Source: a virus (lineage: Duplodnaviria > Heunggongvirae > Uroviricota > Caudoviricetes). From it: a stretch of 32,213 nucleotides of DNA. This document shows positions 9,219 to 29,971 of the stretch, one piece after another (position 1 is the stretch's first letter; each line of letters begins with the position of its first letter). The position numbers and the translations under genes are program-made. Location of the stretch: the IMG/VR virus record IMGVR_UViG_2541047852_000002. The stretch is one strand, 5' to 3'. Under the pieces are notes generated by a model. It did not search any database. It was not told where the DNA came from and worked only from the letters and a program-made list of their open reading frames with translations.

Positions 9219-10424
9219 ATGGCGGTTGATATTAAAGATGTCGAACAGGTCGCGCAGGAGCTGCAGCAGAAGTTTGACGACTTCAAAGCAAAGAACGACA
9301 AGCGCGTGGATGCGATTGAGCAGGAAAAAGGCAAACTTGCCGGGCAGGTGGAAACCCTGAACGGGAAACTCAGCGAGCTGGAAAACCTCAAAAGCGATCT
9401 TGAAAAAGAGCTGCTTGAGCTGAAACGTCCGGCAGGTGGTGCGCAAAATAAACTGGCCACCGAGCATAAAGAAGCGTTTGTGGGCTTCCTGCGTAAAGGC
9501 CGTGAAGATGGTCTGCGCGATCTGGAGCGCAAGGCATTGCAGGTGGGCACCGATGAAGACGGCGGCTATGCCGTGCCGGAAGCACTGGATCGCAACATTC
9601 TCACCCTGCTGAAAGATGAAGTGGTGATGCGCCAGGAAGCCACGGTGATCACCGTTGGTGGTTCCGACTACAAAAAACTGGTGAATCTGGGCGGCACGGC
9701 TTCCGGATGGGTTGGCGAGACTGACGCGCGCTCCCAGACTGCCACCTCAAAACTGGGCCTGATTGAACCTTTCATGGGGGAAATCTACGGTAACCCGCAG
9801 GCCACCCAGAAAATGCTGGATGATGCCTTTTTCAACGTGGAAGCATGGATCAACAGCGAGCTGGCAACCGAATTTGCCGAACAGGAAGAAATTGCCTTTA
9901 CCACCGGCGATGGTACCAAGAAGCCGAAAGGGTTCCTGGCGTATGAATCCACTGATGAAACCGATAAGGTCCGGGCGTTCGGCAAACTTCAGCATATTGT
10001 ATCCGGCGAAGCGACGGCGGTGACCGCAGACGCCATTATCAAACTGATTTACACGCTGCGTAAGGCACACCGCACTGGCGCGAAGTTCATGATGAACAAC
10101 AACAGCCTGTTTGCCATCCGTCTGCTTAAAGACAGCGAGGGTAACTATCTGTGGCGTCCGGGGCTGGAACTGGGGCAGCCGTCCTCTCTGGCGGGTTACG
10201 GTATCGCTGAAAACGAACAGATGCCGGATATCGCCGCTGATGCGAAAGCCATTGCATTTGGTAACTTCAAACGGGGTTACACCATCGTTGACCGTATCGG
10301 CACCCGCATTCTGCGTGACCCGTACACCAATAAACCGTTTGTCGGTTTTTATACCACCAAGCGCACCGGCGGGATGCTGGTCGATTCGCAGGCCATCAAA
10401 CTGCTGAAGATTGCAGCGGCGTAA
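9219..10424 (+). CDS. major capsid protein (HK97 fold) with N-terminal coiled-coil scaffold domain
   Basis: 401 aa; heptad-repeat N-terminus then capsid domain; SD present. Confidence 0.9.
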   Translation: MAVDIKDVEQVAQELQQKFDDFKAKNDKRVDAIEQEKGKLAGQVETLNGKLSELENLKSDLEKELLELKRPAGGAQNKLATEHKEAFVGFLRKGREDGLRDLERKALQVGTDEDGGYAVPEALDRNILTLLKDEVVMRQEATVITVGGSDYKKLVNLGGTASGWVGETDARSQTATSKLGLIEPFMGEIYGNPQATQKMLDDAFFNVEAWINSELATEFAEQEEIAFTTGDGTKKPKGFLAYESTDETDKVRAFGKLQHIVSGEATAVTADAIIKLIYTLRKAHRTGAKFMMNNNSLFAIRLLKDSEGNYLWRPGLELGQPSSLAGYGIAENEQMPDIAADAKAIAFGNFKRGYTIVDRIGTRILRDPYTNKPFVGFYTTKRTGGMLVDSQAIKLLKIAAA

Positions 10425-14104: not shown

Positions 14105-14460
14105 TGGCCCGTATCGGGGGAACCTGTTATTTCAAAATTGACGGTCAGCAGCTATCGCTGACCGGCGGCATTGAGGTGCCCATGAACAGGACGGTCAATG
14201 ATGACATCATCGGCCTGGACGGTTCAGTGGACCGCAAGGAAACTCACCGTGCGCCTTATGTTAAAGGGACCTTCAAGGTGCCGAAGAATTTTCCGGTGAG
14301 CAAAATCACCTCGTCTGATGAGATGACCATCACTGCCGAGCTGGCGAACGGTCAGGTCTATGTACTGTCGTCTGCCTGGCTGCACGGCGAAGCGAACCAT
14401 AATGCCGAAGAAGGGACGGTTGATCTTGAGTTCCACGGTGAAGAAGGGGATTACCAGTAA
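14104..14460 (+). CDS. tail tube protein
   Basis: 118 aa directly after sheath with overlapping stop/start. Confidence 0.85.
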   Translation: MARIGGTCYFKIDGQQLSLTGGIEVPMNRTVNDDIIGLDGSVDRKETHRAPYVKGTFKVPKNFPVSKITSSDEMTITAELANGQVYVLSSAWLHGEANHNAEEGTVDLEFHGEEGDYQ

Positions 14461-14729
14461 TGAAAGAGCTTGAGTTAAAGAAACCGATTACCGCTCATGG
14501 CGAGACACTCTCCGTACTGGAGTTTGATGAGCCCACCGGGAAAGATGTCCGCGAGCTGGGGTATCCCTACCAGATGAATCAGGATGAGTCCGTCAGACTT
14601 CTGGCGCATGTGGTATCGAAATACATTGTGCGGCTGGCGAAAGTGCCGCAAAACTCTGTCGACCAGATGTCTCCGGCAGACCTGAATGCTGCGGCGTGGC
14701 TTGTGGCTGGTTTTTTCCTCCAGGCCTGA
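14460..14729 (+). CDS. tail assembly chaperone (G-like)
   Basis: Small ORF before tape measure; ends just past a slippery heptamer. Confidence 0.75.
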   Translation: MKELELKKPITAHGETLSVLEFDEPTGKDVRELGYPYQMNQDESVRLLAHVVSKYIVRLAKVPQNSVDQMSPADLNAAAWLVAGFFLQA

Positions 14730-14878
14730 CGGCTGAATACCTCACTGATCGCTTCTTTGACTGCGCCAGCTACTGGCGCATTAATCCCTTCGAATTGCTG
14801 AATATGCCGATCAGTGAAATTCCCTTGCTGGTCAGTCAGGCAAACAGGATAGAGCAGGAGAAACGCACACATGGCTGA
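14696..14878 (+). CDS. -1 frame extension of tail assembly chaperone (GT-like product)
   Basis: ORF in -1 frame relative to 14460-14729, overlapping the slippery site and running to the tape-measure start. Confidence 0.6.
   Translation: MACGWFFPPGLTAEYLTDRFFDCASYWRINPFELLNMPISEIPLLVSQANRIEQEKRTHG
14711..14717 (+). promoter_or_regulatory. programmed -1 ribosomal frameshift slippery heptamer T TTT TTC
   Basis: Seen in sequence, in frame with the chaperone codons GGT TTT TTC. Confidence 0.6.
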
Positions 14879-16706
14879 ATTTGAGCTTAAGGCGTTGATC
14901 ACCGGTGTCGACAGGCTTTCTCCCGCGCTGTCGAAAATGCAAAAGAAAATCCGGGGATTTAAACGCCAGGCGGAAGAAGCGTCACAGGGTGGGCTGGCGC
15001 TTGGTGGCGGACTGGCTGCGGGTCTGACGCTTTCCCTGAAATCTTATGCCGATCAGGAAAACGCCGCCACCGGGCTGAAAGTTGCCATGATGGATGCGAA
15101 CGGTGAGGTCGGAAAGCGCTTTCAGGACATCAATAAACTGGCTATTGGTCTGGGTAACCAGCTACCCGGTACAACGGCTGATTTCCAGAACATGATGCAG
15201 ATGCTGGTGCGTCAGGGGATCCCGGCAGAAAACATTCTTGGCGGTGTGGGTAAAGCGACAGCTTATCTTGCGGTACAACTGAAAAAAACACCGGAAGCGG
15301 CTGCCGAGTTTGCCGCAAAGATGCAGGATGCTACCGGAACGGCGTCAGAAGACATGATGGGGCTGTTCGACACTATCCAGAAGGCGTTTTATCTGGGCGT
15401 TGACGATACCAACATGTTGTCCTTCTTCACTAAAACCAGCTCTGTTCTGAAGATGGTGAACAAGGACGGTCTTCAGGCTGCACAGAGCCTTGCCCCCATC
15501 AGCGTCATGATGGATCAGATGGGGATGAACGGGGAGTCGGCAGGTAACGCCCTGCGAAAAGTTATCCAGTCCGGATTAAGCGTTAAGAAAATCAGGGACG
15601 TCAATAAAGTCATGGCCCGCCAGAAACTCGGGGTACAGCTCGATTTTACTGACGGCAAAGGGAGTTTTGGCGGTCTTGATAACATGTTCAGGCAACTGGC
15701 AAAGCTGCGAAAACTGACCGACGTTAAGCGAACTGGTGTACTTAAGGCAATATTTGGTGATGATGCCGAAACCCTTCAGGTGGTCAATGCACTAATCGAT
15801 AAAGGAAAGGATGGCTACGACCAGATCCAGCAGAAGATGAATAAACAGGCCAGTCTGAATAAACGTGTTCAGGCACAGCTTGGTACGCTGTCCAACCTGT
15901 GGGAGGCAATGACAGGGACCGCAACTAACGGCCTTGCGGCTATTGGCGGCGCATTTTCTGGTGACGCTAAAAATATCACGCAATGGCTGGGGGAGTTGGG
16001 GGAGAAATTCACGAAGTTTGCGGATGAAAATCCCCGGGTTATTCGCGGCGTCGTCGGGCTTGCTGCCGGTCTTGCGATTCTGAAACTGGGATTGATGGGC
16101 GTTGGCGGTGCCATCAGTATTGTCAGCAGGATCATGTCGATGACGCCGATTGGCATGATTGCGACGGCGATAGCCCTGGCTGCGGGATTAATTATCACTA
16201 ACTGGGATGTTGTCGGACCTTATTTCAAGAAGCTCTGGGAAACCATTGGTCCTTATTTTGAGGCTGGCCGGGAACTTCTGAAGAAGGTTTTTGCCTGGTC
16301 GCCGCTGGGGATGGTAATCAATAACTGGGGACCGGTTGTTAAGTGGTTTCAGGATATGTGGGACAAGCTGAAGCCAATTATTGAGTGGTTTACCGACAGT
16401 TCCGGTGACACGGTCGATGCCATTAACTCTGCGCAGTGGGGCGCGGGTGCTTATGATGCTTATGGGACGGGAATACCGGCACGGGGATACACACCTTATC
16501 AGGCGGTGGATCCGGCTCAGTCAAACAACGCCTCCGGTGCCACAGGCCCGAATCCCTTCATGATTAACAAAGCTTCTGCGCCAAAAGTTGATGGTGAGAT
16601 CAAGGTCTCTTTTGTGAATTCACCTCCGGGTATGCGGGTTATGGAAACGCGATCCAGCGGTTTTGATGTCAGCCATGATGTTGGCTATACGCGCTTTGGC
16701 AGGTAA
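14871..16706 (+). CDS. tail tape measure protein
   Basis: 611 aa, Ala/Gly-rich helical with hydrophobic segments; after chaperone. Confidence 0.88.
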   Translation: MAEFELKALITGVDRLSPALSKMQKKIRGFKRQAEEASQGGLALGGGLAAGLTLSLKSYADQENAATGLKVAMMDANGEVGKRFQDINKLAIGLGNQLPGTTADFQNMMQMLVRQGIPAENILGGVGKATAYLAVQLKKTPEAAAEFAAKMQDATGTASEDMMGLFDTIQKAFYLGVDDTNMLSFFTKTSSVLKMVNKDGLQAAQSLAPISVMMDQMGMNGESAGNALRKVIQSGLSVKKIRDVNKVMARQKLGVQLDFTDGKGSFGGLDNMFRQLAKLRKLTDVKRTGVLKAIFGDDAETLQVVNALIDKGKDGYDQIQQKMNKQASLNKRVQAQLGTLSNLWEAMTGTATNGLAAIGGAFSGDAKNITQWLGELGEKFTKFADENPRVIRGVVGLAAGLAILKLGLMGVGGAISIVSRIMSMTPIGMIATAIALAAGLIITNWDVVGPYFKKLWETIGPYFEAGRELLKKVFAWSPLGMVINNWGPVVKWFQDMWDKLKPIIEWFTDSSGDTVDAINSAQWGAGAYDAYGTGIPARGYTPYQAVDPAQSNNASGATGPNPFMINKASAPKVDGEIKVSFVNSPPGMRVMETRSSGFDVSHDVGYTRFGR

Positions 16707-16724: not shown

Positions 16725-17690
16725 ATGAGTCCCACTCCGGTGGGATTTTTTATGTACGGAGTTTATATGACGTGGAAAGACAGACTTCAGGACGCGTCAT
16801 TTCGCGGTGTGCCGTTTAAGGTTGAAGAAGAAAGTGCGGGAACCGGTCGTCGTGTGGAAACGCACGAATACCCGAACCGCGACAAACCCTATACCGAAGA
16901 CCTGGGGAAAATCACTTTCCGCCCGTCCATCACAGCTTATGTGGTGGGAGATGACTGCTTTGACCAGCGCGATCGCCTGATTGACGCGCTGAATAAACCC
17001 GGTCCCGGCACGCTTGTCCATCCGACTTACGGTGAGCTGAAAGTCTGTGTTGACGGGGAAGTTCGGGTCAGCACATCGAAGAGTGAAGGGCGTATTGTCC
17101 GCTTTGACCTGAAGTTTGTCGAAGCGGGAGAACTCTCTTACCCCACTTCAGGTGCGGCGACGGCGCAGACGCTGATGTCATCCTGTTCTGCACTGGATGA
17201 CTGCATCAGTGACAGCTTCAGTGGTTTCAGTATCGATGGCGTGGCAGATTTTGTGCAGAACGACGTCGTCGGTAATGCCAGCACAATGCTTGGGTATGTT
17301 TCTGATGCGATGAAAGTGGTGGATTCTGCCGTATCGGATGCCGCCAGGCTGTTGCAGGGGGATATCTCGGTACTTCTGCCGCCGCCATCGTCAGGCAAAA
17401 ATTTCGTTGAGCAGGTGCAGAAAATGTGGCGTACCGGGAAACGCCTTTATGGTAACGCCAGCGACCTGGTCACCATGATCAAAACGCTTTCCGGTGTCAG
17501 CCTCGGCAGCGATCTGCAACCGCGCGGCGTCTGGAAAACGGACAGTAAAACCACCGCCACGGCGACGCAGCAGCGTAACGTGGTTGCCAGCACCCTTCGT
17601 ACGACCGCAATCAGCGAAGCGGCGTATGCCGTCACACGATTGCCTGCGCCCACAACTTCCGCGGTGATGCAGAATGCCACAGTGGGGTAG
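16725..17690 (+). CDS. DNA circularisation protein (Mu N-like), N-terminal part ending at an in-frame TAG
   Basis: ASFRGVPF and HEYP motifs recalled as typical of the family; likely start ATG 16767 with GGAG upstream. Confidence 0.75.
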   Translation: MSPTPVGFFMYGVYMTWKDRLQDASFRGVPFKVEEESAGTGRRVETHEYPNRDKPYTEDLGKITFRPSITAYVVGDDCFDQRDRLIDALNKPGPGTLVHPTYGELKVCVDGEVRVSTSKSEGRIVRFDLKFVEAGELSYPTSGAATAQTLMSSCSALDDCISDSFSGFSIDGVADFVQNDVVGNASTMLGYVSDAMKVVDSAVSDAARLLQGDISVLLPPPSSGKNFVEQVQKMWRTGKRLYGNASDLVTMIKTLSGVSLGSDLQPRGVWKTDSKTTATATQQRNVVASTLRTTAISEAAYAVTRLPAPTTSAVMQNATVG

Positions 17691-17759
17691 TCAACAACAC
17701 CCGCGCAGAGCACCGGCTGGCCTTCTGTCACGCATCCGGCACTGAACAATGCACCGGCG

Positions 17760-18095
17760 GTGAAAAACACGGTTGACCTGCCAACGTGGGAAGAACTGAC
17801 CGACATTCGCGACACACTGAATACGGCAATTGATAAGGAGTTGTCCCGTACAACCAGTGATGTGCTGTTTCTGGCGCTGCGCCGGGTGAAAGCAGATCTG
17901 AATGCGGATATCAACACGCGCCTTGAACAGTCTGCACGGATCATTCAGCGCACACCGGATGAGGTTTTACCCGCGCTGGTGCTGGCGGCGACCTGGTTTG
18001 ATAACGCGGCGCGTGACGCGGACATTATCCGGCGTAATGCCATTACGCATCCCGGCTTTGTGCCGGTGATCCCTCTGAAGGTGCCAGTGCAATGA
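17760..18095 (+). CDS. probable C-terminal part of the DNA circularisation protein (same frame, downstream of amber codon)
   Basis: Same frame as 16725-17690 with no stop between 17691 and 17759. Confidence 0.5.
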   Translation: MKNTVDLPTWEELTDIRDTLNTAIDKELSRTTSDVLFLALRRVKADLNADINTRLEQSARIIQRTPDEVLPALVLAATWFDNAARDADIIRRNAITHPGFVPVIPLKVPVQ

Positions 18096-19171
18096 ACGAT
18101 AACGTCACGCTACGGGTAAATGGCCGGGAGTGGAATGGCTGGACATCGGTGCGCATCGGTGCCGGTATTGAACGGCTGGCGCGGGATTTCAGTGTGGAGA
18201 TCACCCGCCAGTGGCCGGGTGATGAGGGTATCACCACGCTTCAGCCGCGCATTAAAAACGGTTCAAAAGTGGAGGTGCTGATTGGTGATGAGCTGGTGAT
18301 CACCGGCTGGGTGGAGGCGACGCCCGTTCGTTACGATGCCCGTTCGGTCAGCACCGGTATTGCCGGACGCAGTCTGACCGCTGACCTGATTGACTGTGCA
18401 GCCGAACCGACACAGTTTAACGGACGATCGCTGGTACAGATTGCGCAGGCGCTTGCTGCGCCTTTCGGCATTGAGGTGGTGAACAACGGTGCGCCGTCGG
18501 GTGTTATTCCTGACGTCCAGCCCGATCACGGTGAAACGGTGATTGAGGTAATCAACAAAATACTCGGTCAGCAGCAGGCACTGGCTTACGACGACCCACA
18601 CGGCAGGCTGGTGATTGGCGGTATTGGCTCAACGCGGGCACATACTGCGCTGGTACTCGGGGAAAACATCCTTTCCTGCGATACGGAGAAGAGTATCCGG
18701 GAGCGGTTTTCTGTTTACCAGGTGGCGGGGCAGCGTGCTGGAAACGACGATGATTTCGGTGAGGCCACCACCAGCGCGCTGCGGGCCCGCACAGAGGACG
18801 CATTTATTGCCCGTTACCGTCCGATGTATATCAGGCAGACAGGGCAGGCTACGGGGGCAGGCTGTATTGCGCGTGCTGACTTTGAAGCCCGACAACGGGC
18901 GGCGCGGACGGATGAAACCACCTATGTGGTGCAGGGCTGGCGACAGGGTAACGGTACGCTGTGGCAGCCCAACCAGCGGGTGATTGTCTTCGATCCGGTC
19001 TGTGGTTTCGACAATACCGAACTGCTTGTCTCGGAAGTCACGTTTACTCAGGACCAGAACGGCACCCTGACGGAAATCCGTGTCGGCCCACCTGATGCTT
19101 ATCTGCCTGAACCCGAAGCCCCCGGCGCGCGGAAAAAGAAAAAAGCCAGAGTACAGGAGGACCCGTTCTGA
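18092..19171 (+). CDS. baseplate hub protein (Mu P / P2 gpD-like)
   Basis: 359 aa, position after circularisation protein. Confidence 0.75.
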   Translation: MNDNVTLRVNGREWNGWTSVRIGAGIERLARDFSVEITRQWPGDEGITTLQPRIKNGSKVEVLIGDELVITGWVEATPVRYDARSVSTGIAGRSLTADLIDCAAEPTQFNGRSLVQIAQALAAPFGIEVVNNGAPSGVIPDVQPDHGETVIEVINKILGQQQALAYDDPHGRLVIGGIGSTRAHTALVLGENILSCDTEKSIRERFSVYQVAGQRAGNDDDFGEATTSALRARTEDAFIARYRPMYIRQTGQATGAGCIARADFEARQRAARTDETTYVVQGWRQGNGTLWQPNQRVIVFDPVCGFDNTELLVSEVTFTQDQNGTLTEIRVGPPDAYLPEPEAPGARKKKKARVQEDPF

Positions 19172-21767: not shown

Positions 21768-22511
21768 ATGCATCGTATAGACACGAAAACCGCGCAGAAG
21801 GATAAGTTCGGCGCGGGTAAGAACGGTTTTACCCGTGGTAACCCCCAGACAGGCACGCCTGCCACCGATCTGGATGATGACTACTTTGACATGTTGCAGG
21901 AAGAACTCTGCAGCGTGGTGGAGGCATCCGGTGCCAGTCTGGAGAAGGCGCGGCACGACCAGCTGCTTACCGCGCTTCGTGCGCTGCTGTTAAGCCGCAA
22001 GAATCCGTTTAGCGATATCAAATCGGACGGCACGGTGAAAACGGCTCTCGAAAACCTTGGTTTGGGAGAAGGCTCTGCATTACCTGTTGGTGTGCCTGTT
22101 CCATGGCCTTCAGCCACACCGCCAACAGGCTGGCTGAAATGCAACGGTGCGGCTTTTTCTGCTGAAGAATACCCGGAACTGGCAAAGGCTTATCCGACAA
22201 ATAAATTGCCTGATTTACGTGGTGAGTTTATTCGTGGCTGGGATGATGGGCGCGGCGTTGATTCAAGGCGTGCGGTGCTGTCAACACAAGAGCCAACTGT
22301 AGGTACTTTTTATGTGGAGCTAGCTATCATCTCGGGAACTTTGAGCGGCTCAGGTGCTAAATTTACCGATTCAGTAGGGATTGGATCAACCAGTAGTAAC
22401 ATTACCGTTAGCAACGGTAATGACCAGTCCGTGTCGGGTACAGTGGCCGTTAACCCCGTCGATACCCGTCCACGCAACATTGCATTTAACTATATCGTGA
22501 GAGCAGCATAA
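21768..22511 (+). CDS. tail fibre protein; constant N-terminus fused to invertible C-terminal segment at the crossover site near 22057
   Basis: Crossover site encodes LENLGLGEG in frame. Confidence 0.85.
22045..22070 (+). repeat. Gin/Pin/Hin-type 26-bp recombination site, left
   Basis: Imperfect palindrome CTCTCGAAAACC-TT-GGTTTGGGAGAA; shares the 15-mer TTGGTTTGGGAGAAG in inverted orientation with 23971-23985. Confidence 0.75.
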
Positions 22512-23113
22512 TGGATAAAGCAATATTAAATAGTGGACTTGTTGCTACAAAGGCAGGGGATATTACCGTTTATAACTATGATGGTGAAACTCGGGAATAT
22601 ATTTCCACTTCAAGTGAATATCTTGCCGTTGGTGTTGGTATCCCGGCATATTCCTGTCTGGATGCACCAGGTATACATAAGGCGGGTTATGCTATCTGTC
22701 GTTCTGTGAATTTAAATTCATGGGAATATGTGCCAGACCATCGCGGTGAAATCGTCTATAACACCGAAACGGGAGAATCAAAACAAATCACAGCACCGGG
22801 TGATTACCCCGAAAATACAACCACTATTGCCCCATTAACGCCATACGATAAATGGGATGGTGAGAAATGGGTGACCGATACTGAGGCACAGCATAGCGCC
22901 GCAGTAGACGCGGCAGAAGCACAGCGTCAGTCACTGATTGATGCTGCAATGGCTTCCATCGGTCTGATTCAGCTGAAATTACAGGCCGGACGGAAGCTGA
23001 TGCAGGCAGAAACAACCCGGCTTAACGCTGTGCTGGATTACATTGACGCGGTGACGGCAACAAATACCAGCACAGCGCCGGATGTCATCTGGCCTGAACT
23101 GCCGGAGGCGTAG
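22511..23113 (+). CDS. tail fibre assembly protein (currently expressed orientation)
   Basis: 200 aa, follows fibre gene. Confidence 0.85.
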   Translation: MDKAILNSGLVATKAGDITVYNYDGETREYISTSSEYLAVGVGIPAYSCLDAPGIHKAGYAICRSVNLNSWEYVPDHRGEIVYNTETGESKQITAPGDYPENTTTIAPLTPYDKWDGEKWVTDTEAQHSAAVDAAEAQRQSLIDAAMASIGLIQLKLQAGRKLMQAETTRLNAVLDYIDAVTATNTSTAPDVIWPELPEA

Positions 23114-23528
23114 GCCATTCAATATCTGGCGCACAGGAAGTATCGACCAGTTCCAGTGCGTCCAGATAATCCAGCCACGAATTATATTGCGCCAGTTCCT
23201 CGCCTTTCAGACGACCAATAGCAGCTTTGCCAGGCCACTGATGGGTATTGATGTAGGTATTGACTTCTGAAACCAAAGATATTTTTTTCATTTCAGCCGT
23301 CAACACCTCATCCTCTTTTGAAGGGGGTGGGGAATTAATCCATACTGGCCGTCCTGAACTGTCAGCGCCAATTTCTTTCCCTTCTGGATGCAGACCAAGA
23401 AATTGCTCATATGTTTCTCTGGTAATTTCAATAACATCATCAGGAAGCGTTCCCGCATCCTCATATTCTGGAAACAATTCTTGCAGATAAAAACTTTTAC
23501 TTCCGGGTGAAAAGAATACTGAGTTCAT
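23085..23528 (-). CDS. alternative tail fibre assembly protein (silent orientation)
   Basis: Convergent with the expressed copy inside the invertible segment. Confidence 0.8.
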   Translation of the reverse strand: MNSVFFSPGSKSFYLQELFPEYEDAGTLPDDVIEITRETYEQFLGLHPEGKEIGADSSGRPVWINSPPPSKEDEVLTAEMKKISLVSEVNTYINTHQWPGKAAIGRLKGEELAQYNSWLDYLDALELVDTSCAPDIEWPTPPAVQAR

Positions 23529-23530
23529 TA

Positions 23531-23984
23531 TTACCGTCCAATGATTAACGCTGAGACGCTGGTATCTGAAGGAAAGGCTGCATTCAGTGGTTTGTCGACT
23601 TTGAACACAATCGTATTATTCCCCCTGACAGCGGCAAAAGAACAAACCGCCGTCGCGTATGAACCTGTAATATTACTGGATACACCACCATAAGCTGTTG
23701 TTGATACCAGAGGGATAACGCCCAGCACCTTATTAGGAAATACAAAGGGCAATGTGGCTGTGGCAATATAAGACTTATTAGAACCTGTGATGGCATAAGC
23801 ATTATCAGTCATTCCATTCATCGCCACTGGGCCGCTTATACTTACAGTAACCATCTGAATGATTAGCCCGTCAGGTTGACGAATCACAAAATTTCCATTG
23901 CCACCAGTAACCGTCCAGAAAGACATATCAGGGATTTGGTTTTCCCCGTTGCCCACATTCCGTTTTGCCGCTTCTCCCAAACCA
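23531..23984 (-). CDS. alternative tail fibre C-terminal segment (no own start; fused to constant region after inversion)
   Basis: Reads in frame through the second crossover site as NVGLGEAAK. Confidence 0.75.
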
Positions 23985-23997
23985 ACGTTTATGAAAA
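23972..23997 (-). repeat. Gin/Pin/Hin-type 26-bp recombination site, right (inverted)
   Basis: Inverted copy of the left site; just upstream of the invertase gene remnant. Confidence 0.75.
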
Positions 23998-24051
23998 TGC
24001 AGAAATAACGAGCAAATGGCATCATTCCTGCTTTTGTCAGGGAGATCTACC

Positions 24052-24180
24052 ATGCTTATTGGCTATGTACGTGTGTCAACAAATGACCAGAACACAGATC
24101 TACAACGTAATGCGCTGAACTGTGCAGGATGCGAGCTGATTTTTGAAGACAAGATAAGCGGTACAAAGTCCGAGACCTAG
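24052..24180 (+). pseudogene. pin: DNA invertase (serine recombinase, Pin/Gin/Hin family), truncated after 42 codons
   Basis: MLIGYVRVSTNDQNTDLQRNAL... is the conserved invertase N-terminus including the catalytic Ser region; frame ends at TAG 24178-24180 where similarity stops. Confidence 0.85.
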
Positions 24181-24275: not shown

Positions 24276-26168
24276 TTAATCGTGTTTTGGCCATACTTTC
24301 AATGCAATTTCCCCCAACTTTTTACCCCGCTCCAGGATTTCATCCTCATCCCATTTATCCTTAACTATAAGTGGAATGTTCAGTCGTAGATTGGTGTGGA
24401 CGATGAGAGCATCACGTTTTTTCAGAAATACAGCATTCTGAACAGAACGGTTTACGCTAAGGTTAAGCAAAGTTAGATTTCCCAAAGTAGATATCGCTTG
24501 TTGCCGTTTCCTTACCAGTAGCTGTTCAGGGGTAAGATCGGTTCCAGACAGAACAATTTGGTTCAATACCGTAGCATCTGAATTTGTCACCATACGACCA
24601 TTTTCGAGAGGCCAACAGGAATACCAACTTTGAGGCATAAGATGATCGATATCGAGATTAGAAAGATTTGGAACATCAGGCTTTTCTGTCTTTACTTGGC
24701 GACAAAGTTCTCTTTCAAGTTCCGTTAACATTGAGCGCATTTTCGGTGCGTCGAGCCTGCCAGGATAAAGTGGAGCATTGATGCAAGCGTTGAGAAATTC
24801 TGAGTCACCAGGCCAACGTGAGGCTTCGCCATTTAAGTTATTGAGGATATTACGTAACTCAACACTGGAAATTTCCGTTTTAGCCAAGTGCCGCAATACA
24901 TTCATAAATACATTGTTGTAATTCTTTGGCGTCAGGCCACATACGGCTCTTCGTACTACGTAGGAGACAAGATCATTATACATGGCTGCTTTCTCATCAT
25001 CAGCGATGTTAGCTATCGAAATGAACAAAGCAAGCGGATAAAGTGTCGTCACATCATAGTCTGCGATGCGATATCCAAAGTGTGAGATGGGGGTTGTGCC
25101 AAAACCATCAACCAATTCTTTATATTGTGATGCATATTGTTTGAGGCGCTTTACTTGCAGATCTGCTCGTTGTGAAGACAAGTCCTTACTTACATAATCA
25201 CGATACTCATTGTAAAGGCGAGACAGATCAATTTCACGTTGCCTTTCTGATTGCAATGTCGCATGTACTAGCCACTCCATGCGTGGTTTATTAATACGTC
25301 CACGGCGTTGTTTTTCCGACCAGTATTTATCTTCAAAGCTCTTCCACTCATTTTCATATAATTCAATAGCATTAATATTTTCATGCTCAGCGCACATAAA
25401 GATATAGTTGCGAATAAGATCCGTAGCATGAAGTTCCGCCCCTCGCCCATTTAATGTTTCAAAAATTATTTGGGCATCATCTTCAGCTTCGAGAAATATG
25501 CTTACCAGTTTCAGATCTGTTAAGACAGCCTCAATTAGAGCTACAGCATTTTCTTGTGGTGAGTGGTTTTCTATTTTAATCCATTTTATAAAGGCTTCAG
25601 TAAAAAAACATAATGCTTCTAGTGATGGCGGGTGATTAAAATGCTTACGCAACGTACCATGCTGCGTGAAACTATCAGAGAATACGTCCCGGAGATCGTC
25701 AATATTTTCAACATTAAAACTTTGAATAAAATGAGTTTGATCCCGAAAAGTTGGCCACAGTTTGAAGCGTTCTACTTCTTTATTTCGCATTGTGTCTTCG
25801 TTTGAGTTTTTCAGGCAAGGCGAAATGAGAGCCTCTAAGCTGGAAAGATCCGTAGCACGTAATGCTAATCGGATGGATGCCAGAACATATTGAAGAGTGG
25901 TCAATCGTTGCTGACCATCAATAATATGTATGGAATCTACACCTAATAATCCTTTTTTTGATTGAGGTTCCAGTACAACCGCACCAAGGAAATGGGGAGT
26001 TGGTTTTGTACCCGAGAGCCGGGATTGTACTTTCTCTAGGATATCCTCCAGTAGAGCTGACCACTGGTCTTGCTGAGTCCATACATAGGCACGTTGATAG
26101 AATGGAACACAGTATTGTCGGCGGTCTTGAAAAAGTTGTTGGACAGTTAGCGTCTCGGATTTCATGGT
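24276..26168 (-). CDS. GmrSD-like type IV (modification-dependent) restriction endonuclease, DUF262 + DUF1524
   Basis: N-terminal DUF262 motifs (FYQRAYVW, DGQQRLTTL); C-terminal His-Me finger motifs (DIDHLMPQS, GNLTLLNLSVNRSVQN). Likely start ATG at 26168; track ORF extends to 26225. Confidence 0.85.
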   Translation of the reverse strand, partial: TMKSETLTVQQLFQDRRQYCVPFYQRAYVWTQQDQWSALLEDILEKVQSRLSGTKPTPHFLGAVVLEPQSKKGLLGVDSIHIIDGQQRLTTLQYVLASIRLALRATDLSSLEALISPCLKNSNEDTMRNKEVERFKLWPTFRDQTHFIQSFNVENIDDLRDVFSDSFTQHGTLRKHFNHPPSLEALCFFTEAFIKWIKIENHSPQENAVALIEAVLTDLKLVSIFLEAEDDAQIIFETLNGRGAELHATDLIRNYIFMCAEHENINAIELYENEWKSFEDKYWSEKQRRGRINKPRMEWLVHATLQSERQREIDLSRLYNEYRDYVSKDLSSQRADLQVKRLKQYASQYKELVDGFGTTPISHFGYRIADYDVTTLYPLALFISIANIADDEKAAMYNDLVSYVVRRAVCGLTPKNYNNVFMNVLRHLAKTEISSVELRNILNNLNGEASRWPGDSEFLNACINAPLYPGRLDAPKMRSMLTELERELCRQVKTEKPDVPNLSNLDIDHLMPQSWYSCWPLENGRMVTNSDATVLNQIVLSGTDLTPEQLLVRKRQQAISTLGNLTLLNLSVNRSVQNAVFLKKRDALIVHTNLRLNIPLIVKDKWDEDEILERGKKLGEIALKVWPKHD

Positions 26169-26520
26169 ATACCTGTAAGCGACATTGTACAAAAGTGAGG
26201 AGTTAATCTGATTTAGAACAATCATTTTATTTTGCTATGATACAACGTATTTGTTACCGATTAAGTAAAAAACGCGTCTGAACGCTGACGTTTTAGGGCT
26301 TTACTGGTTATTCTTTCTTATCTCTTCATCATCCCATCGGCATCCTGTCGAGGTTGTTGACTTGTTGTTATTTATTTTGTCTAGGCGCTGTTTAATTATT
26401 ATTGATAGAATTGATGGTGAGAGGTGATTGAAACCGTAGGCACGTCGTTTGCAAGGACGTGCTACGACTGGCTGGTGAACTTCCGATAGTGCGAGTATTG
26501 AATGATTTCCTACGTGCTAA

Positions 26521-26768
26521 CTAGTGAACAAACAACTCTTCAGTAGACTCTCAGGTATCATTCAGAGTTTCCTGAACGAAAGTTTTAGCTCAATCTTTAT
26601 CTGCAGTATGTCTAACTGAAAAACTATCGTTGCTGGTGGCTTTTACGATCATCTCCACATCGTCATAACGCTTGCCAATGTGTTGGGTTAATTCTTCCTT
26701 TAACGCGTCCACAGCGCCGTTTGGCATTTGGTCATTTTGTCTTTGGCTATGGAGATCTCAATACGCAT
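26521..26768 (-). pseudogene. dinI-family (DNA-damage-inducible protein I-like) pseudogene
   Basis: [14 protein letters not shown] then, after a 1-nt shift, [45 protein letters not shown], an in-frame TGA, AKTFVQETLNDT and a second TGA; matches the DinI pattern recalled from memory. Confidence 0.6.
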
Positions 26769-26968
26769 AACACTTCTTTTGTACTGCGTTTGTAGACAGT
26801 ATTATTCTTATCTGTGTAAATAAACAGTATCAAGACTTCGTTTTAGCTGCATAAGAAAAAAGAGATGGATACATTCGGAAAGATTTTGATGGTGGTAGGC
26901 TAAGTGAATAGCCTAAAGGTGTTTTACCCCAATTATTCCCCGGTATTTCTCCGCATAAAAAACAATCA

Positions 26969-26995
26969 TAAAAAAACCAGCCATAATAGGCTGGT
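26969..26995 (-). terminator. rho-independent terminator immediately 3' of the tRNA-Pro fragment
   Basis: Minus-strand stem ACCAGCC/GGCTGGT with loop TATTAT followed by T7. Confidence 0.65.
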
Positions 26996-27009
26996 TCTTA
27001 AGGGATTTT

Positions 27010-27055
27010 TGGTCGGCACGAGAGGATTTGAACCTCCGCCCCCCGACACCCCATG
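27010..27055 (-). other. 3' fragment (about 45 nt, T-arm to CCA) of a tRNA-Pro (proL-like) gene; probable integration-site core (att junction)
   Basis: Minus strand reads CATGGGGTGTCGGGGGGCGGAGGTTCAAATCCTCTCGTGCCGACCA; the 5' half is degenerate and cannot form an acceptor stem or D-arm. proL sequence recalled from memory. Confidence 0.65.
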
Positions 27056-27165
27056 ATGGCGAGCTACGATCTTAAGGGCTGTTATGTGCCAGAAACAGAG
27101 ATTTTTATATTCCTCACTCTGGAAATCATAATGCTAACTAGTAGGGATTATAAGTTGTCAATTGA

Positions 27166-27990
<825 letters not shown>

Positions 27991-28556: not shown

Positions 28557-28757
28557 TCCTGTAAGGTGACACTTAAGCGTGTCAGAACTGCGCAATAACA
28601 ACCTTCACTTTTCCTTCCGCGTCTTTAGATTCCAGATCGGTTTTCACGCCCAAAGGATTATTTATGTAGCAATCCGGGTCATATACAAACAAGATCAACG
28701 TATTGAACCGCCCCGGGAATCCTGGAGACTAAACTTCCTGAGAAAGAGGTAAACAGG

Positions 28758-29084
28758 ATGACTAAAAATACTCGTTTTTCCCCCGAAGTCCGTCAACGGG
28801 CAGTCCGTATGGTTCTGGAAAGTCAGAGCGAATATGACTCACAATGGGCGACAATTTGTTCCATTGCTCCAAAGATTGGCTGTACGCCGGAGACTCTGCG
28901 TGTCTGGGTTCGCCAGCATGAGCGGGATACCGGGGGCGGTGATGGAGGGCTCACCACCGCTGAACGTCAGCGTCTGAAAGAGCTGGAACGTGAAAATCGT
29001 GAACTGCGCCGCAGTAACGATATCCTTCGCCAGGCTTCCGCTTATTTTGCGAAGGCGGAGTTCGACCGCCTCTGGAAAAAATGA
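28758..29084 (+). CDS. IS3-family transposase OrfA
   Basis: Identical to 888-1214. Confidence 0.93.
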
Positions 29085-29971
29085 TGCCACTGCTGGATAA
29101 GCTGCGTGAGCAGTACGGGGTCGGACCGCTATGCAGCGAACTGCATATTGCCCCGTCAACGTATTACCACTGTCAGCAACAGCGACATCATCCGGATAAA
29201 CGCAGTGCCCGTGCGCAGCGCGATGACTGGCTGAAGAAAGAGATACAGCGCGTATACGATGAAAATCACAAGGTATACGGTGTGCGTAAAGTCTGGCGTC
29301 AGTTGTTACGGGAAGGTATCAGAGTGGCCAGATGCACTGTGGCACGTCTCATGGCGGTTATGGGACTTGCCGGTGTTCTCCGGGGTAAAAAGGTCCGTAC
29401 GACCATCAGCCGGAAAGCCGTTGCCGCAGGCGACCGCGTAAACCGTCAGTTCGTGGCAGAACGACCTGACCAGCTGTGGGTGGCTGATTTTACTTACGTC
29501 AGCACATGGCGGGGCTTCGTCTATGTGGCGTTCATCATTGATGTGTTTGCCGGATACATCGTGGGGTGGCGGGTCTCATCGTCCATGGAAACGACATTCG
29601 TGCTGGATGCACTGGAGCAGGCGTTATGGGCCCGTCGACCGTCCGGCACGGTCCATCACAGTGATAAAGGTTCTCAGTATGTATCGCTGGCCTACACACA
29701 GCGGCTTAAGGAAGCCGGATTACTGGCATCAACAGGAAGTACAGGCGACTCGTATGACAACGCGATGGCGGAGAGCATCAATGGTCTTTACAAAGCGGAG
29801 GTAATACACCGTAAGAGCTGGAAAAACCGTGCAGAAGTGGAACTGGCCACACTCACGTGGGTGGACTGGTATAACAATCGACGATTGCTGGAAAGGCTGG
29901 GCCATACTCCTCCGGCAGAAGCAGAAAAAGCTTATTATGCTTCCATCGGAAACGATGATCTGGCAGCCTGA
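29081..29971 (+). CDS. IS3-family transposase OrfB
   Basis: Identical to 1-891; A6 run at 29076-29081 at the OrfA/OrfB overlap. Confidence 0.93.

Follow-up and report, generated by a model that had tools for sequence, protein, structure and literature searches.

In the 32,213-nt stretch of phage-derived DNA analysed here (hereafter the window), two open reading frames, at 16725-17690 and 17760-18095, lie in the same frame and are separated by a single stop codon. Does this codon mark one gene broken by mutation, one gene that still functions in a particular host, or two genes? A first-pass annotation of the sequence had proposed either a nonsense mutation that splits a Mu N-like DNA circularisation gene and leaves the prophage tail-defective or a gene that works only in an amber-suppressor host, and had added chance in-frame continuity as a further alternative. 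We consider it highly probable that a nonsense mutation (Gln308, CAG to TAG), recent and passed on clonally, has interrupted the single-copy tail-tube initiator gene of an SfV/SfI-like prophage. The first of the earlier proposals fits the evidence, namely the CAG codons of homologues and the internal stop recorded by PGAP.

The in-frame TAG at 17688-17690 and the 23 sense codons that follow it (17691-17759), with no other stop between the two open reading frames, had been correctly described and can be read directly from the sequence. The 5' boundary of the gene had been placed at 16725, where we differ: ATG 16725 sits within a terminator-like hairpin, and the PGAP annotation of the E. coli SCU-116 record starts the gene at ATG 16767, 5 nt downstream of a GGAG ribosome-binding site seen in the sequence at 16758-16761. 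The phage SfV and SfI records place the start at the equivalent of ATG 16752, 15 nt further upstream, which yields 447 aa. Because the start is at 16767 (or 16752) and not at 16725, the read-through product comprises 442 aa (or 447 aa) rather than the approximately 456 aa first estimated, while its Mu N-like identity stands. The interrupted gene spans 16767-18095 on the plus strand, i.e. 442 codons when TAG is counted as Gln, and in the SCU-116 record, which is 100% identical, it is annotated as a CDS for a 'DNA circularization protein' flagged as pseudo with the note 'internal stop'. Its translatable N-terminal fragment (16767-17687; 307 aa) holds the tube-like DNA_circ_N domain (aa 7-93; nt 16785-17045). 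The orphaned C-terminal coding remnant (17691-18095) comprises 134 codons and a TGA stop; all 134 codons past the TAG remain open, and they run into the following gene through an ATGA overlap.

The genes on either side are encoded on the same strand. Upstream is the tail tape-measure gene (14871-16706), intact in the PGAP annotation of SCU-116, and downstream is a Mu P/gp44-like baseplate hub gene (18092-19171). Since the ATG of the hub gene overlaps the stop codon of the N homologue, the two are probably translationally coupled. A terminator scan located a hairpin and T-run on the plus strand at 16727-16751 (hairpin 16727-16748), between the tape-measure and N genes and within the late operon, where it overlaps ATG 16725. 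In the SfII phage record, a 'terminator' feature is annotated at the matching place, and in the intact phage the hairpin is presumably read through under Q antitermination. Further upstream, a 141-nt unannotated gap (14730-14870) separates the tail assembly chaperone gene (14460-14729) from the tape measure; in long-tailed phages the gap before the tape measure is the usual site of a frameshift-extended chaperone product.

Homologues, both close and distant, were drawn from phage, E. coli, and PDB collections. The N-terminal domain (aa 7-93) matches Pfam PF07157 (DNA_circ_N) at 117.9 bits against a cutoff of 21 (E 2.8e-34 for the N-terminal fragment, with values from about 1e-34 to 6.5e-34), and the protein with Gln at codon 308 matches PHROG 184 along its whole length (E 1.8e-145; profile positions 3-408 of 411). 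The 134-codon C-terminal piece on its own matches both PHROG 184 (E 2.7e-37) and PHROG 17109 (E 9.8e-73). A full-length homologue in one piece was found in 35 phage records, with identities among those sampled ranging from 99.5% to 27%, and a single gene of 442-447 aa is annotated in SfI, SfV, SKA5, vB_EcoM-689R6, and UTI89. The gene region is matched by all 12 of 12 close phage records at 96.7-98.9% identity. When TAG is read as Gln, residues 10-433 of the protein align with residues 26-485 of Mu N (PDB 9ki1). According to PGAP and the phage annotations, the gene occupies the position between the tape-measure and Mu P/gp44-like hub genes in a contractile-tail module. The domain, collinearity, and gene position of a Mu N/gp43-type protein are thus all present, and the reading frame is interrupted by the TAG at codon 308. 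By these sequence comparisons, the window gene belongs to the Mu N/gp43 family as a pseudogene carried in an SfV-like prophage.

The closest relative is the UTI89 'DNA circularization protein' (WP_001350765.1; 442 aa), whose region is the same as the window over 2,461 nt bar one base. Like the window gene it lies between tape-measure and Mu P-like hub genes of the same ssrA-glaH prophage; unlike the window gene it has CAG at codon 308 and an uninterrupted reading frame, and its prophage retains the integrase, excisionase region, repressor and early region, and Q antiterminator. SfV orf15, SfI gp17, and the SfII tail/DNA circulation protein have the same flanking genes and 96.7-98.9% nucleotide identity. 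These belong to sequenced phages in which a single intact gene is present, and they too differ from the window in having CAG at the site. Mu N/gp43 is related only distantly (phmmer E 4.3e-14), and the low-complexity middle part aligns poorly. The two proteins have in common the N-terminal DNA_circ_N domain and the place in the tail gene order, and they are collinear, including in a well-conserved C-terminal segment (...LPALV...RRNAITHPGFVP against ...LPAMV...RRNGISNPLFVP). Mu N is 495 aa long, against 442 aa for the intact protein here, and the window copy stops at residue 307.

At the nucleotide level, the premature amber codon (17688-17690, plus strand) is accounted for by a C-to-T transition at 17688. 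T in the window against C in UTI89 at this position is the one difference over the 2,461 nt around the gene. UTI89 has CAG at this codon, as do the five phage records compared (SfI, SfV, SKA5, and vB_EcoM-689R6 among them), while base-level comparison gave TAG in SCU-116, BEN5202, and NCTC11151. Alignment with intact homologues, a check that the first-pass annotation had suggested, gave a single protein across the junction with Gln (CAG) in place of the TAG. Along its entire 32,213 nt, the window matches E. coli SCU-116 (NZ_CP051719.1) at 100% identity. Across 27,435 shared nt, one synonymous SNP separates it from NCTC11151, and three SNPs and one poly-T indel separate it from UTI89. The transition is very recent. 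The poly-T tract in question, at 4178, has one T more than in UTI89 and lies in a minus-strand ORF of 146 aa (3898-4338) that PGAP annotates in SCU-116, NCTC11151, BEN5202, and E10 and does not annotate in UTI89.

The gene region is present in about 1,097 of 5,426 complete E. coli genomes, and the T allele in exactly eight of the 5,426. These eight were recovered with a 31-mer search able to match only T-bearing sequences, and they were also the only exact matches of a 61-mer search. The carriers are SCU-116, FY26, MS20673, APEC E12053 (O2:K1:H4), E10, BEN5202, NCTC11151, and Eco_23-2678, and their sources include a human rectal swab (USA), human cerebrospinal fluid (Australia), a laying hen (France), poultry (USA), an NCTC strain, and an African green monkey, among others. 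PGAP records an 'internal stop' pseudogene in four of the four carriers inspected (SCU-116, BEN5202, NCTC11151, and E10).

What the truncation would do can be approximated from Mu, in which gp43/N was identified by a 2025 cryo-EM study as the hexameric tail-tube initiator (PMC11915804). Mu gp43 pairs an N-terminal tube-like beta-barrel domain with a helix-rich C-terminal one that contains a LysM module; this helix-rich domain reaches downward, sits between neighbouring three-helix bundles of the wedges, and strengthens the wedge-hub connection (PMC11915804). Incorporation into the virion and the binding and circularisation of injected DNA are known for Mu only, from literature cited by that study (PMC11915804). 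In the window, translation ends after 307 of 442 residues, such that the tube-like domain is kept and the conserved C-terminal ~135 residues are lost. By analogy with Mu, the lost part would correspond to the wedge-contacting helix-rich/LysM domain. As a point against the preferred reading, the surroundings of residue 308 are low-complexity and linker-like and align poorly with Mu N. The LysM assignment rests on the Mu structure paper and on the alignment to Mu N, because Pfam returned no LysM match in the C-terminal piece at E values up to 10, where the sole match was a spurious one to NleF. Modelled with AlphaFold2 from its single sequence, the stretch of 134 C-terminal aa gave a poor structure (mean pLDDT 51; pTM 0.36). 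Failure or instability of baseplate and tail assembly, or failed DNA delivery, would be the expected outcome, leaving the prophage non-infective. In addition, given that the hub ATG overlaps the N stop as ATGA, a premature stop 405 nt upstream may weaken translation of the hub gene by uncoupling.

In wild-type E. coli, near-cognate tRNA-Gln(CUG) reads through UAG and inserts Gln at roughly 0.01-1%. As Gln readthrough would restore the exact wild-type protein at a low level, the defect in otherwise intact carriers such as E10 could be leaky, either by this route or through nucleation of tubes by the 307-aa fragment; we regard this as improbable. Were it so, few or aberrant particles rather than none would be produced, i.e. 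the carrier would be a naturally attenuated phage or a producer of tail-like particles. For the strain from which the window derives the matter is moot, its integrase-to-Q region being deleted. A search of titles and abstracts for published induction of the SfV-like prophage of UTI89 found nothing directly relevant.

Somewhat less probable again, and in our view very unlikely, is that the locus is a functional split gene in which an N-terminal tube-initiator fragment acts together with a separate C-terminal polypeptide translated from GTG 17760. Such an arrangement has precedents: some contractile-tail phages encode the tube initiator in one gene and a small LysM or BH1a protein in another, and split tube-initiator architectures exist in other myophages (PMC11915804). 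PHROGs likewise contains families confined to the N-terminal part (phrog_16855 and phrog_20901) and one confined to the C-terminal half (phrog_17109). The C-terminal piece of the window gene, however, has no in-frame ATG anywhere across 17691-18095, and no Shine-Dalgarno sequence precedes GTG 17760, its first and only start-like codon. The earlier annotation had named homologous phages with two separate genes as grounds against a mutation; the relatives opened, namely UTI89 and five phage records (including SfI, SfV, SKA5, and vB_EcoM-689R6), each have a single gene. A second gene was rejected on these two grounds, i.e. the lack of a downstream ATG or Shine-Dalgarno sequence and the single gene of the relatives opened. 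The allele is, moreover, one base from the intact gene and confined to eight near-identical genomes, which would have left no time for adaptation as a split gene.

PHROG 17109 itself, a 204-position profile, matches only aa 237-442 of the protein (approximately 17475-18092 of the window; E 4.6e-111). Some phage genomes in PHROGs must therefore annotate a piece that covers just the C-terminal part of a very similar gene, and the members of this family may be other split or mis-called copies.

A third possibility, to which we give less credence still, is that the amber codon is tolerated through a host amber-suppressor tRNA and that full-length protein is made. The supE allele (glnV-CUA) would restore exactly the ancestral Gln, and it occurs in 155 genomes of the 5,426-genome collection; the first 12 of the 155 listed, however, belong to the laboratory K-12 family, C600, DH5alpha, DH1, and J53 among them. 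The survey of suppressors covered glnV and glnX in one carrier and tyrT/V, serU, and leuX across the collection. The carrier in question, MS20673, has the same junction between insertion sequence and Q as the window and is 100% identical to it over a 1,651-nt region around the gene; both its glnV and its glnX have CTG anticodons. Across the 5,426 genomes, a tyrT/V-CTA (supF-type) allele was found in none, a serU-CTA (supD) allele in the non-carrier DSM 498 alone, and no full-length leuX-CTA (supP) allele. The search for host suppressor alleles that the first-pass annotation had called for was thus carried out: the tyrT/V, serU, and leuX types are absent from all carriers, and glnV and glnX of MS20673 are wild type. 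No tRNA gene was found in the window itself. A readthrough gene would be expected to have its stop conserved among relatives, and this TAG occurs in eight near-identical genomes only. The suggestion of a gene functional in an amber-suppressor host is left unsupported, with no suppressor allele found in carriers within the coverage given above, and suppression is not needed to explain the data.

That T at 17688 is a sequencing or assembly error, a caveat already attached to the first-pass annotation and one that its status as a single-base departure from the majority allele might favour, is hardly credible, because the same T is present in eight separate complete assemblies of strains that differ in host and country and because the site lies outside any homopolymer run. 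Chance continuity of the frame, also raised at the outset, is excluded by the homology of the codons after the TAG, which encode a piece that matches the same family and is collinear with single-gene homologues.

With an inherited nonsense mutation in a single gene as the preferred reading, the remaining question is where this lesion stands in the history of the prophage. The late genes run in the order holin, endolysin, HNH, small and large terminase, portal, HK97 protease, and major capsid, followed by sheath, tube, tape measure, N, and Mu P-, gp45-, gp46-, and J-like baseplate genes, and then by tail fibres, cargo genes, and ssrA. A collinear late region, together with 96.7-98.9% identity across the region to SfI, SfII, SfV, and SfIV (Shigella/Enterobacteria phages), assigns the element to the SfV-type prophages, in which the head is HK97-type and the contractile tail Mu-type; it lies between ssrA and glaH.

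Two further regions of the element deserve description. Tail-fibre and fibre-assembly genes on the plus strand (21768-23113) face an alternative set on the minus strand (23085-24022), and of the invertase gene only a 123-nt remnant is present (24052-24174), a PGAP pseudogene that is a pseudogene in UTI89 as well; the interval 21768-24174 looks like a frozen tail-fibre switching module. Beyond it, cargo or defence-like genes occupy 24276-27990 next to ssrA, and include a DUF262 protein (24276-26165, minus strand), a DinI-like pseudogene (26551-26768), and a LEM-3-like GIY-YIG nuclease-domain protein (27217-27990).

Three IS3-family elements are present in the window (1-1269, 28704-30013, and 30727-32051). 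Two are IS629-like copies, of which one runs off the start of the window and borders a truncated Q and the other, complete at 1,310 bp, sits in a PD-(D/E)XK/hypothetical gene; its flanks overlap by 3 bp in UTI89, indicating a target-site duplication. The third element is of a different type and measures 1,325 bp.

At the left end of the window, the IS629-like element cut by the window edge (1-1269) is followed by a 3' remnant of antiterminator Q (1271-1594), the two together occupying 1-1594 and marking where the early region of the prophage (integrase to Q) was deleted. This junction was found in three genomes only (SCU-116, MS20673, and Eco_23-2678), all of them TAG carriers, in which the region from integrase to Q is gone and host genes (glaH) lie beyond the insertion sequence. 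Q is intact in UTI89, E10, BEN5202, and NCTC11151, and the upstream early region is present in those inspected for it (UTI89, NCTC11151, and BEN5202). In E10, the amber codon is the sole lesion, beyond those also found in UTI89, in the approximately 40 kb inspected. In BEN5202 (locus 23532-23969), a deletion has removed ymfQ completely and truncated baseplate J at its 3' end, and the integrase is intact, while in NCTC11151 (locus 7689-10174), FY26, and E12053 an IS629-like insertion splits the integrase gene. Neither junction, integrase::IS or IS/Q, was found among CAG genomes.

Because the amber codon is common to all eight carriers, it is probably the earliest lesion of this small clade. Under the order that we propose, the amber mutation would have come first and would have been followed by the IS629-like insertion in the integrase, the J/ymfQ deletion, and, in the sublineage of the window, loss of the integrase-to-Q region. 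This order is drawn from eight genomes, however, and clonal descent by itself could account for it, with no easing of selection once the amber codon had arisen.

In the strain of the window, an IS-associated deletion has removed everything from the integrase to antiterminator Q. Its prophage has accordingly lost the ability to excise and to replicate, and late transcription probably cannot be activated, there being no intact Q. Owing to this IS-mediated loss, the prophage is dead irrespective of the amber codon, which in this strain would have no further phenotypic consequence and is one scar among several in a dead remnant.

Taken as a whole, the locus is a case of ordinary prophage decay that involves no new mechanism, and the lesion is already recorded as a pseudogene in public NCBI annotation, such that its importance beyond annotation is small. 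It does provide a dated decay step for a prophage that is widespread in E. coli, in which a nonsense SNP found in eight genomes was followed by insertions and deletions that differ by sublineage. The T allele could serve as a clonal marker for its sublineage, and E10 offers a natural example of a complete-looking prophage disabled by one base.
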